Source: an uncultured Candidatus Saccharibacteria bacterium (GTDB taxonomy: Bacteria > Patescibacteriota > Minisyncoccia > Sungbacterales > SURF-37). Taken from it: a stretch of DNA of 32,463 nt. A program made the position numbers and the translations under genes. Under the pieces are notes generated by a model. It was given only the letters and a program-made list of their open reading frames with translations, was not told the origin of the DNA and did no database searches. The stretch covers positions 1 through 32,463 of the forward strand of contig CAYIBD010000004.1 in assembly GCA_964361655.1 (NCBI GenBank), written 5' to 3'. This document shows positions 1,546 through 19,394 of this stretch, piece by piece. The first letter of the stretch is position 1. Every line of letters starts with the position of its first letter.

Positions 1546-1906
1546 TTGGCCCCCGCTTTCGAGCTGCAGGCGATGAAAGCGGAGCTGCCAAACTCCCGCC
1601 TATTCCTACGAGGCGAAGCCGAGTAGCTGAATGGGCGAGGATCCCGTACATATCATGCGTGGATATGATTACTTTCACGAATGGGCGGGATCGCGCACTT
1701 TAACCTCGTTCGCTTCCGGCGAACTCGGGATATGTGCGGGACTTCACCCGCCGTAGCCTCGGTGAAGGCGGGTTAGCATAAGGAAGTCCGCCTTCGCTCC
1801 CCCTTCGCCTTCGGCTACGGAAGGACACAGTAAAGCTTCGGCGGATGCTCATAATCGCAGCGAATTTTCTCGCTTACGATGTGAGCTCGAAAATTCGGCG
1901 ATTATG
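1546..1906. repeat. Array of about six REP-like hairpins between ssb and rpsR
   Basis: Stems 1553-1560/1575-1582, 1594-1605/1679-1690, 1704-1728, 1746-1773, 1787-1845 and 1861-1897 were read directly. Confidence 0.8.
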
Positions 1907-3252: not shown

Positions 3253-3258
3253 GGTGTC

Positions 3259-3343
3259 TCGATGCTAATATACGAATTCTACTAATGATACGAATGCCGG
3301 TTGGCGATTCGTATAATTAGTACCATTCGCATATTGGTATCGA
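3259..3343. repeat. 85-nt imperfect hairpin of TACGAAT/TACTAAT and ATTCGTA/ATTAGTA repeats directly upstream of recA
   Basis: TCGATGCTAATATACGAAT pairs with ATTCGCATATTGGTATCGA; inner repeats pair in register; same architecture as 995-1075. Confidence 0.8.
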
Positions 3344-3346
3344 TAC

Positions 3347-3715
3347 TTACTTTACCACGATATACCTTACGACCCTGGTGGTCTTCCCGTAGCGGTTTTT
3401 GGCTTCAAACTCGAGACGATTTACGCCTTTGAAGAGATATATGCGCTCGCTGAATTCACCGCTGCCGCCACTGTATAATGGCCGGCCGTTCAAGGTCAAA
3501 TCGGCGTCGGGGTCGGTCCGGCCACGAAGGTCGTAGCGCGTTGCCTCGGTTGCAATATCCCCCGGCGGCTCGAGGATCTCAAGGCCGGGCGCACGGAGGA
3601 ACTTGAATTCATAGGCGAAAAAACCAACGATGGCCGCCACGACCATGGCGGCGATCAGGAGCACAAAGTTCCGCTGGTTGATGGGGGCGTGTCGCCGTCG
3701 GAGGGGATGATCCAT
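3347..3715 (-). CDS. Membrane-anchored Ig-like domain protein (hypothetical)
   Basis: One N-terminal TM helix, then P.LEI..P...GRTDPDA.LTLNG...GVNRL.FEA.N.YGK beta-sandwich pattern; co-oriented between ftsK and recA. Confidence 0.8.
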   Translation of the reverse strand: MDHPLRRRHAPINQRNFVLLIAAMVVAAIVGFFAYEFKFLRAPGLEILEPPGDIATEATRYDLRGRTDPDADLTLNGRPLYSGGSGEFSERIYLFKGVNRLEFEAKNRYGKTTRVVRYIVVK

Positions 3716-10847: not shown

Positions 10848-11693
10848 ATGCTTTTTTACGCCGCCATTTTCTTGCTCGGCCTTCTCCTCGTGGCCTTGTG
10901 GAGCGCCTGGATTACGGTGCGACCGACAAGGATTCGTATTCCCCTCACGCCACAGCACTACCACCTGCCGGCCGAGGAGGTGACGATCAGAACCAGTGAC
11001 GGGTTAGATCTTTCGGCCTGGTTCATCCCCCGCGAGGACCGTGCCGTGGATGCGCCGGTGGTCATCCTCCTCCACGGCTATCCCGCCGAGAAGGGCGATA
11101 TGCTCGGCATAGCGCAAGCACTCCACCCTTACCTGGCAACGTTAGTCATGGACTTACGCTACTTCGGCAAGAGCCAAGGCCGCTTCACGACGCTCGGGCT
11201 ACGCGAGCGGGACGATCTTTCGCGCGCCGTTGACTACCTCGAGGGGCGAGGGTTGCGTCGGATCGGCGTCTTTGGATTTTCCATGGGCGGTGCGGTGGGG
11301 ATGATGGCCGCCGCCGATGATTCCCGCATCCGGGCGGTTGCGACGTACGGCTCGTATTCGGATTTGATCACGCTCGGCCGCGAGGCCTATCGCAATCTCT
11401 GGATCCTGAAGTATCCCCTGGTGGAGATGATGCGCTGGTGGGCCGAGGCCATCCTCGGCGATGACCCAACGGCTATATCGCCGCTCGGGGCAGCCGGAAC
11501 GTTTGGGGTACCGGCGTTGATCACCCACAGCCGCGCCGATGAGCAAATTCCCTTCCACCACGCTGAAGCGTTGCGCCGGGCGCTCGGGACCAATCCGAGA
11601 GCCGAATTCTATTTCTTCGATCAGGGCCGCCATGGAGATCTCCCGGCGGACTACGAGGAGCGGCTCATTTATTTCTTCCTCCGCTCGATCTAG
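10848..11693 (+). CDS. Alpha/beta hydrolase with N-terminal membrane anchor
   Basis: LLHGY, DLRYFGKSQG, GFSMGG nucleophile elbow, HSRADEQIP, GRH. Confidence 0.92.
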   Translation: MLFYAAIFLLGLLLVALWSAWITVRPTRIRIPLTPQHYHLPAEEVTIRTSDGLDLSAWFIPREDRAVDAPVVILLHGYPAEKGDMLGIAQALHPYLATLVMDLRYFGKSQGRFTTLGLRERDDLSRAVDYLEGRGLRRIGVFGFSMGGAVGMMAAADDSRIRAVATYGSYSDLITLGREAYRNLWILKYPLVEMMRWWAEAILGDDPTAISPLGAAGTFGVPALITHSRADEQIPFHHAEALRRALGTNPRAEFYFFDQGRHGDLPADYEERLIYFFLRSI

Positions 11694-18428: not shown

Positions 18429-19394
18429 CTACGGCTGCAGGATGTCCTCGGTGCGGCCGTCTATGGAGATTACGACATCGCGGATACTCGGAAACTGCCT
18501 TAACGTTTCGATGATTTGGGCGCGGATTGCAGCCACGCGGCAGGAGCCGCCAACGTCACGATCAAGCGCCGCAGTGAAATCAACGCGCGCAATGCCCCGC
18601 TCGATCGCCAGGTGCTGTAGCGCAACACCGGCGTTCAACGTCGTGAAGTAGCCGGCCTTGATCTCGGAACCGGTTGGACCGATCAGGAGTTCTTGGAGTG
18701 CCGTGCGGGCCACGGCTTGCGACTTCGGCACCTCGCGATTCACGGGGAAGACCGTGGCGCAATCGGCTGCGCCGGAGCTTAGCCGTTGGTTCCCGAAAAA
18801 GATTCTGATGGTTATGGTTTCGCCGGCAGCCGGAGGGAGGCGGAGGGAGACCGGAAACGTCATCTCATCCTCATGCTCGGCCAGACCGGATGGATTTGAT
18901 TTCTTGAGGATGAGCATTCCCCTATCCGTGGTTGGCGGGTCGGCGTAAAGAGTGGCCCGGAACGGCACGAAATCCGGGGTCATCCACTCTCCCTCGGCAA
19001 AGGCGCTCGCCCACCCGAGCCCGTTGCCAAAGGCATCCACCAGCCGGATGGGAAATTCGGCTTCAAAATACCATGTTCCCCGCGCCTCACCCTCAATGAC
19101 GACCGGACTTTCGACCGTCTGATAGGGCTGAAGGTTTTTGATTCGAACCAGATCGCTCTTCTCGCGGAAGGTGCCGATCTCTTCCCGGAAGACCCGGCGG
19201 CCGGCCCAGCACTGCCGGGGGTAGGACTCTCCGACCGGAAACCCCAGCCGGATACAATCAGCAAAGCTCTCCACCCGCCGCGCCTTTTGCCAGTCGAAGT
19301 TGAGGCACCAGCTGGCATTGCAACCCAAGAGCAGCCAGCCAGCGCTAGCGATGCCGATCACGGCCAGGCCAAGAGCGATCGAACGGCGAGACAT
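18429..19394 (-). CDS. Secreted Gmad2 (Ig-like) + GerMN domain protein
   Basis: SFADC...GESYPRQC module, GEARGTWYFEAEFP (Gmad2), GGSCRVAAIRAQIIETLRQFPSIRDVVISIDG (GerMN). Confidence 0.9.
   Translation of the reverse strand: MSRRSIALGLAVIGIASAGWLLLGCNASWCLNFDWQKARRVESFADCIRLGFPVGESYPRQCWAGRRVFREEIGTFREKSDLVRIKNLQPYQTVESPVVIEGEARGTWYFEAEFPIRLVDAFGNGLGWASAFAEGEWMTPDFVPFRATLYADPPTTDRGMLILKKSNPSGLAEHEDEMTFPVSLRLPPAAGETITIRIFFGNQRLSSGAADCATVFPVNREVPKSQAVARTALQELLIGPTGSEIKAGYFTTLNAGVALQHLAIERGIARVDFTAALDRDVGGSCRVAAIRAQIIETLRQFPSIRDVVISIDGRTEDILQP

Follow-up and report, generated by a model that had tools for sequence, protein, structure and literature searches.

The window (the whole 32,463-nt stretch analysed here) is contig C4 of a 47-contig patescibacterial genome, G000 (668,566 bp, 58.7% G+C, estimated completeness 93.8%), and the DNA sequencing runs that bear it are groundwater metagenomes, with no RNA run listed. 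Near its left end rpsF (521–994) precedes ssb (1082–1540, + strand) and rpsR (1904–2119, + strand), the latter two placed from the list of open reading frames (ORFs) and by tblastn to relatives; recA lies on the strand opposite to all three. The ssb stop codon (TGA, 1538–1540) and the rpsR start codon (1904–1906) are separated by a 363-nt spacer, unusually long for a housekeeping-gene junction, and this ssb–rpsR gap is occupied by hairpin modules bounded by a left arm (M1) and an inverted right arm (M7). No promoter-like or terminator-like site was found on the + strand of 950–2250, so the gap should be co-transcribed, and inspection reveals no Shine–Dalgarno-like sequence before rpsR.

A sequence-only reading had described the gap as tiled by imperfect hairpins that share GA or GAA internal loops, in both orientations. 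Sequence and fold confirm the hairpins and their GA/GA or TC/TC loops: the + strand of 1541–1910 folds at −174.2 kcal/mol against a shuffle mean of −133.0 (s.d. 6.3; z −6.5; 0 of 100 shuffles as stable), and the − strand at −160.6 kcal/mol (z −6.3). Clean 2×2 loops are formed by 1606–1626 (+; CTAC-GA-GGC-gaa-GCC-GA-GTAG) and by 1861–1897, a TC/TC hairpin that is GA/GA on the − strand, while the loop of 1553–1582 (+) is asymmetric, with GA facing GAT. A TTC/TTC hairpin, GAA/GAA on the − strand, spans 1787–1845 (CCGCC-TTC-GC...GC-TTC-GGCGG). Two members of the proposed set fare less well: the TC/TC hairpin at 1704–1728 (GA/GA on the − strand) has an outer stem of only 2 bp, and the GTA/GAA hairpin at 1746–1773 (+; CCCGCC-GTA-GCC..GGT-GAA-GGCGGG) is possible but unused in the minimum-energy fold. 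The expectation that GA loops exceed chance holds in part. A loose scan of G000 (4-bp outer stem, 2×2 loop, 2-bp inner stem) returns 105 GA/GA hairpins against 45, 41, 48, 42 and 40 in five dinucleotide shuffles; a strict scan (5 + 3 Watson–Crick pairs) gives a weak excess of 11 sites against 10 for the next classes, with 5 of the 11 belonging to one repeat family. GAA/GAA is not enriched, being absent from the ten commonest 3×3 loop classes of the genome.

Mapping the gap resolves it into modules. M1 (1538–1603, +) is a long hairpin. Its first triplet is the stop codon, which is part of the basal stem; above this follow a middle stem, the GA/GAT purine loop, an inner stem and a terminal loop, and 1553–1582 is its core. 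In the fold, M2 (1594–1645, +) has outer arms CCCGCCTATTC / GAATGGGCG(A)GG around the core CTAC-GA-GGCGAAGCC-GA-GTAG (1606–1626), and the two aligned homologues of 1593–1646 (from genomes G028 and G003) keep GA..GA with both flanking stems changed. A block at 1640–1741 (+) is closed in the fold by a 13-bp long-range stem (1642–1654/1729–1741, inverted repeat I2) around inner hairpins that include 1704–1728; partial copies lie at C47:1466–1552 and in G028. The letters at 1742–1752 (CTTCACCCGCC) resemble the usual 3′ end of an M1 module, as judged from the M1 consensus and from a contig joint (1551→1742) described below. M6 (1787–1845, +) is a hairpin with a 33-nt inner part (1798–1830); there are 11 M6-type hairpins in G000, a copy at C29:1459–1515 is 95% identical, and copies of 79–91% identity occur in other genera. 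M7 (1847–1909, −) is an inverted M1-like hairpin (inverted repeat I4) with its core at 1861–1897, and its basal stem CATAATCGC/GCGATTATG includes the rpsR start codon. The small hairpin repeats (M2, the 1640–1741 block, 1746–1773 and M6) are apparently partly nested in each other. This modular make-up is at odds with the earlier idea of one structure-defined family united by a GA defect: the modules represent several ordinary sequence families, and the loops of 1553–1582 (GA/GA) and 1861–1897 (TC/TC) are alike by descent, since these hairpins are homologous inverted copies.

The long form of M6 (1787–1845, C29:1459–1515 and loci L005, L006, L012 and L007) retains 79–95% identity across genera and families, which seems high because SSB is only 56–66% identical in the other-family genomes. 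At L005, L006 and L012 it sits within a larger block with common flanks (..aaattgtca / caagtcgg..). A suspected location inside tmRNA genes of relatives found no support, as ARAGORN and Rfam gave no tmRNA in L005, L006, L012, L007 or L016, and no Rfam family was found at the long-form loci; the block may be an unrecognized RNA or another composite repeat.

M1 belongs to a covarying family whose consensus, taken from relatives, is T(A/G)A-AGGGCTTGGCC-stem-TTTC-GA-GCC-loop-GGC-GA(A)-GAAA-stem′-GCTGCCAAACC-TT(T/C)A. Within an alignment of 19 copies 94% of cells are paired (32–47% in slid controls), and compensatory changes affect 14 of 24 pairs, a level reached by 0 of 500 shuffles. In the basal stem, the 5′ side consists of the upstream gene's stop codon, the second base of which covaries with its partner (A–U in 12 copies, G–C in 6, unpaired in 1). 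The purine loop has an invariant A beside the inner stem and an invariant G opposite, the other two positions being mostly G and A. Mismatches in the stems are G·U in 17 cases and A·C in 13, which shows no RNA-strand bias. A covariance model, R1, was built from the 19-copy alignment; it scores 54–90 bits at 33 independent loci and gives 71.2 bits (E 1.2e-17) for the window copy at 1538–1603, which is one of the model's own 19 sequences. Matches to R1 occur in 38 of 62 genomes of the order, the richest with 47, 46, 32, 27, 24 and 20 copies, and in G000 with 7. An exact two-anchor M1 pattern, sought among 185,579 species genomes, is found at 29 places, 27 of them in records titled Patescibacteria, Parcubacteria, Sungiibacteriota, Jorgensenbacteria, Portnoybacteria, Brennerbacteria or Saccharibacteria. 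The remaining two are a record without a lineage in its title and a Bordetella-titled metagenome-assembled genome, whose match looks like chance, its interior being seemingly non-palindromic on inspection.

The position of M1 is as regular as its structure. In 23 of 34 strong copies the module starts precisely on the stop codon of an ORF that runs in the same direction and has 60 or more codons, and in 12–13 of the 34 the sequence ..GGC|ATG of the next gene follows 100–160 nt downstream. In a separately retrieved set, three copies are instead placed after a promoter-like TTGnnn-N17-TATAAA, as judged by eye. Genes that follow these elements, rpsR included, show no Shine–Dalgarno-like sequence, with ATG directly after ..GGC or ..CGC (window 1890–1906 and the loci of strong M1 copies). 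One relative that has no element at the ssb–rpsR junction (G002) carries AAGGAG ahead of its rpsR ATG.

The right arm links the two ends of the gap. The second-best R1 match in the 32-kb window, and the best that is not the model's own sequence, is a weak one on the − strand at 1855–1901 (16.4 bits, E 0.018, model positions 10–53), aligned through the TTTC-GA-GC ... GC-GA-GAAA ... GCT core. At 8 of 40 loci searched, a strong M1 has a weaker partner on the other strand, 48 to ~250 nt further on. Model alignment of these inverted partners gives CAAT-GTTGT-...GAGC...GCGAA...-ACAAC-A-TTGAGCAC, a pattern that clearly shares the M1 design. Inverted M1-like partners therefore define the unit as a long imperfect palindrome in which a left and a right arm enclose a central slot, the right arm stopping 0–2 nt short of the start codon. 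Terminal inverted repeats, as used to define miniature inverted-repeat transposable elements, are thus present: M1 and an inverted M1-like arm bound copies without an ORF (the window and the 8 loci) and copies that carry one.

In relatives, the central slot can hold a gene. ORFs encoding a GIY-YIG domain (PF01541, E 1.9e-15 to 3.6e-12) occur in the slot directly after M1 in four genomes (G010, G042, G026 and G017), and a fifth (G027) has a looser version of the layout, with the ORF ~300 nt after M1. In G010 this is the orthologous ssb–rpsR gap itself, which reads M1, then an 85-amino-acid GIY-YIG ORF (PF01541, E 1.9e-15) between inverted arms CCCCCACACTCAAACGCC / GGCGTTTGAGTGTGGGAG, then a right-arm-like module and rpsR. 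The same order of M1, arm, GIY-YIG ORF (81–86 amino acids), arm′, right arm and ATG is found after infC (G042), before a PrgI-like gene (G026) and before nusA (G017). GIY-YIG ORFs are present at 3 of the 34 strong M1 copies examined. PF01541 matches are found in 62 of 62 genomes of the order, at 1 to 16 each, of which one is expected to be uvrC; no NCBIfam family matched the GIY-YIG ORFs. The sequence-only reading had suggested looking for GIY-YIG genes flanked by the same hairpins, and in relatives such genes exist.

G000 itself has three small GIY-YIG ORFs (on contigs C36, C18 and C43), and those on C36 and C18 (101 and 96 amino acids) are flanked by hairpins of a different type. Units of the form (C)GTCAT-stem-GA-GCGAAGC-GA-stem′-ATC, from an abundant G000 family, stand on both sides of each. 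By our tally there are 34 such GTCAT-type units, 19 of them with CGTC at the 5′ end. Their core design matches that of the gap hairpin 1606–1626; inspection of the gap hairpins found no GTCAT or CGTC tag. After the third ORF, a right-arm-like module at C43:414–452 (L023; AATTTTGCAGC...GCAAAATTCGC) ends directly at the 5′ end of an apparent tRNA gene, which reads as a counterpart of the way such modules end at start codons elsewhere.

The orthologous junction is highly variable. In nine genomes the ssb–rpsR gap measures 363 (G000), 388, 162, 119, 110, 101, 96, 72 and ~5 nt (G015, by eye), with largely unrelated contents; the short gaps hold other palindromes. When 1400–2000 was searched in 41 related genomes, each ~55-nt sub-hairpin matched scattered places, several per genome, which supports the earlier description of the gap as a hotspot of dispersed hairpins in both orientations. 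Repeated intervals in G000 number 306 and total 32.8 kb, mostly as pieces of 50–100 nt. Short repeats are enriched 4.4-fold outside ORFs, where 32% of repeat bases fall but 7.3% of the whole genome; this figure is only rough, since G000 is GC-rich and a simple coding mask that takes every six-frame ORF of 90 codons or more already covers 92.7% of it. The commonest G000 repeat is a nested palindrome of TACGAAT-like heptamers with up to 21 blast partners per copy; copies or relatives lie in the window at 989–1076, 3255–3347 and 488–534, one filling the rpsF–ssb spacer, where it begins at the stop codon and ends 6 nt short of the ssb ATG, and another lying upstream of recA.

Turnover is also seen at close range. 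Contigs of a co-occurring relative (~90% identical in ssb) align along 1475–1551, jump to 1742–1797, then jump to 1831 and continue into rpsR, with the joints 1551→1742 and 1797→1831 present in three runs out of four, drawn from two studies; even close relatives thus differ in their modules. At the first joint ~41 letters are unaligned, the length of an M1 interior, and CCCGCC stands at 1595–1600 and again at 1747–1752, around the block that the relative skips. We infer that the relative has a simple form (M1, 1742–1797, a short CCGCC hairpin and the right arm), relative to which G000 would carry an extra 148-nt block at 1594–1741, ending TCCCGC...GCGGGA, and 33 nt in the M6 loop. Two short-sided contigs join 1541→1913, implying no element at all; with sides of 23–27 nt, these may come from other organisms.

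RNA genes of this group also adjoin, or apparently contain, modules of these kinds. An M1-like module at C29:808–874 (37.7 bits; L041:109–175) lies directly against the 16S rRNA gene at its 5′ end (minus-strand Rfam SSU match at L041:1–116). The RNase P RNA gene of G000 (C8:19032–19721; L040, L113, L116) seems to be ~690 nt long, with RF00010 matched in two pieces of 18.3 and 57.8 bits (gathering score 100) and apparent interruption by a ~200-nt block (about 19080–19290) and an 87-nt insert, both made of CCGCC-GAA/TTC hairpins with a right-arm-like module. In another genome (G005:C19:10575–11233; L109) the match to RNase P RNA encloses a GIY-YIG ORF at 10875–11087 (PF01541, E 8e-15) between inverted arms CCCCCCACCACTTTTAT / ATAAAAGTGGTGGGGGG, as if in a helix loop. 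RNase P matches in this family extend over 430–659 nt, 8 of 10 of them under the Rfam gathering score. BOX elements of Streptococcus pneumoniae and the Rickettsia palindromic elements have a modular order (a fixed first part, a variable middle and a fixed last part) and insert into RNA genes without destroying them. The order of modules and the apparent insertions into the G000 and G005 RNase P RNA genes are comparable, with no sequence relation.

The closest published parallels pair small nucleases or transposases with hairpin repeats. Chenal et al. 2025 (PMC11893778) showed that SsnA of Neisseria meningitidis, a 94-amino-acid single-domain GIY-YIG enzyme, cuts only single-stranded DNA (ssDNA), its cut lying beside the hairpin repeat NTS (CGTCATTCCCGCGMAVGCGGGAATCYRG); ssn genes are described there as typically flanked by NTS/SRM repeats, and the authors liken NTS-ssnA-NTS to an insertion sequence and to repetitive extragenic palindromic (REP) sequences and bacterial interspersed mosaic elements (BIMEs). 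As in that account, our single-domain ORFs of ~80–100 amino acids are hairpin-flanked, and the hairpins also occur genome-wide in many ORF-less copies. The GTCAT...ATC family of G000 shares the NTS flanks (CGTCAT..hairpin..ATCYRG) and brackets two of the three small GIY-YIG ORFs. Unlike NTS, M1 arms are ~66 nt long, multi-stem and stop-codon-anchored, have no sequence likeness to NTS, and the gap hairpins lack GTCAT tags. Terms for Patescibacteria are absent from the main text of the Ssn paper and from 12 of its 14 supplementary files (PMC11893778), and a 2026 preprint uses SsnA repeats only as a benchmark. With REPs, BIMEs and the REP doublets termed REPINs, the modules have in common that they are short, imperfect intergenic palindromes, often 3′ of genes, in alternating mosaics and in inverted doublets that fold into larger structures, as described in PMC2817692, PMC3116915 and PMC3733652. 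They differ from REPs served by REP-associated tyrosine transposases (RAYTs) in that the associated gene is GIY-YIG rather than Y1 HUH, the modules are longer and multi-stem with ends at stop and start codons, and the host genome is ~0.7 Mb. CGTC-tagged REPs, apparently without a dedicated transposase, have been described (Di Nocera et al. 2013, PMC3733652), and 19 of the 34 GTCAT units of G000 carry the same 5′ CGTC; this likeness concerns the GTCAT family, whereas the gap hairpins share only the GA..GA/GCGAAGC-like core design. Topical searches found, among the papers listed, no literature on such palindromic elements in Patescibacteria, the candidate phyla radiation (CPR), and GTCAT-type motif strings retrieved only unrelated primers among the matches listed.

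We consider it rather probable that the gap derives from a patescibacterial family of palindromic elements associated with GIY-YIG genes, as a nested copy that has no ORF, with its nearest known analogues in REP/BIME mosaics and Ssn/NTS. In its anatomy the left arm begins at the upstream stop codon and the inverted M1-like right arm ends at the downstream start codon. In full-length copies of relatives the slot between them is a hairpin, with an ORF for a single-domain GIY-YIG nuclease (~80–100 amino acids) in its loop; in the window copy it is filled by further small hairpin repeats in place of the nuclease ORF. The element would multiply as DNA, its imperfect hairpins with GA·GA mismatches and GCGAAGC-type mini-hairpins forming on ssDNA, and the element-encoded nuclease may recognize or cut these hairpins, as shown for Ssn and NTS/SRM repeats. 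Copies without an ORF would persist as passengers. Tolerance within an operon may arise because each module self-closes in the mRNA, leaving stop and start codon few unpaired bases apart.

Several observations weigh against this interpretation. Only one of the 7 M1-type matches in G000 is strong, and the window's own element contains no GIY-YIG ORF. No target-site duplication was recognized at the window element, and no clean base-resolution empty/filled pair was obtained. The sole PDB sequence match of the GIY-YIG ORFs is the UPF0213 protein 1zg2 (E 7.5e-6). Matches to the published SRM pattern number 4 in G000, below the 5.95 averaged over 20 dinucleotide shuffles, so the G000 repeats are not SRMs by the published definition. 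DNA folding energy is almost the same for GA and TC strands: nearest-neighbour folding of each hairpin on both strands gives differences of 0.1 to 1.7 kcal/mol, in either direction, and the DNA model cannot separate the two. A strand-specific ssDNA role of the GA loops is plausible. Finally, anchoring at stop and start codons, co-orientation with genes and heavy compensatory change are also what would be expected of a selected cis-acting RNA.

This last point leads to the strongest rival, which we nonetheless hold to be unlikely: that M1 and the other modules are primarily selected cis-acting RNA elements of polycistronic mRNA, serving as spacers between cistrons that stabilize it, direct its processing or keep termination–reinitiation coupling, with their spread secondary. 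The stop-codon start of 23 of 34 strong copies and the ..GGC|ATG lying 100–160 nt on in 12–13 fit it, as do the covarying pairing of the stop codon in the basal stem, the conservation of an unpaired GC, an A and the purine loop with its invariant A and G, the likely co-transcription of a gap without promoter-like or terminator-like sites, and the lack of a Shine–Dalgarno-like sequence before rpsR. Yet the right arm is an M1 module on the opposite strand, so that the mRNA shows UC/UC there and not GA/GA, and G·U is not above A·C in the stems (17 against 13). Most relatives also lack the element at this gene junction, an RNase P RNA gene is apparently interrupted by modules of these kinds, and GIY-YIG ORFs lie inside the element. 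The DNA-element and RNA-role views are compatible and can both hold, as an element confined to operon junctions would be selected for closed hairpins.

Mobilization of REP/BIME-type elements by an HUH Y1 transposase (RAYT or IS200/IS605 TnpA), the partner that the sequence-only reading had put forward, now appears improbable. A mosaic of alternating orientation in an intergenic position is as in REP/BIME (PMC2817692, PMC3733652), and G000 does carry a Y1_Tnp ORF (C26:1902–2609, PF01797, E 5.2e-9). However, the reading fails because the hairpin that flanks this sole Y1 gene, TTCAACATT(C/G)AATGTTGAA, is unrelated to any gap module; nor was a GTAG-headed REP family seen. The gene, a 235-amino-acid IS200-like/RAYT-like ORF (C26:1864–2616, L043), has that hairpin ahead of it, within it and again at the stop codon, and with a fourth G000 copy at C23:8622–8638 and none in the gap this makes a tiny, private REP-like family. 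Still less credible is one large structured RNA, or a ribosomal-protein leader of rpsR, filling the whole gap. The very stable nested fold (z −6.5) and a last stem that sequesters the rpsR start codon speak for it, but the gap is not one non-coding RNA, as had been argued from the mixed orientation, because it matches no Rfam family, its orthologous length and content are unconserved, and its pieces occur separately at unrelated loci. Rfam gave no gathering-level match in the whole window, and for 1400–2050 a threshold of E up to 10 returned only two (E 9 and 5.6; 14 and 11 bits against gathering scores of 90 and 46.7). A guide-RNA-like stem-loop array of the TIGR type, known from CPR bacteria (PMC12045711), or kink-turn protein-binding sites on tandem G·A pairs, would suit variable stems with short conserved GA motifs, but the chance of either is negligible, since no Nop-domain (PF01798) or L7Ae-family gene was found in G000 (93.8% complete) and the GA loops are symmetric (2×2, without a 3-nt bulge), and there is no regular array period.

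Patescibacteria are regarded as models of extreme genome streamlining. Genomes of 0.6–1.0 Mb here hold up to 47 copies of one structured module together with several other hairpin families, and these repeats occupy sites with the least room to spare, namely operon junctions and, it appears, the genes for RNase P RNA. Strongly reduced genomes too thus harbour selfish-looking elements. More tentatively, at somewhat less than even chances, we suggest that M1 hairpins are the arms of a patescibacterial selfish element not described before, with a small, Ssn-like GIY-YIG ssDNA nuclease at its centre. Such an element would be specialized to lie exactly between a stop codon and the next start codon in operons, and in the helix loops of structured RNA genes such as that for RNase P RNA, its stems kept by compensatory change while the host reads through a compact, coupling-preserving spacer, and its ORF-less copies might be working parts of gene expression. 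If the GIY-YIG link is causal, the partnership of Ssn with hairpin repeats would extend to a new phylum and to a much larger hairpin architecture. The covarying hairpins with GA·GA loops form a natural set for probing nuclease recognition, and Ssn enzymes attract interest because they cut ssDNA at specific sites. Should the modules instead act in RNA, they would represent an abundant new class of intercistronic element with the stop codon in its basal stem.

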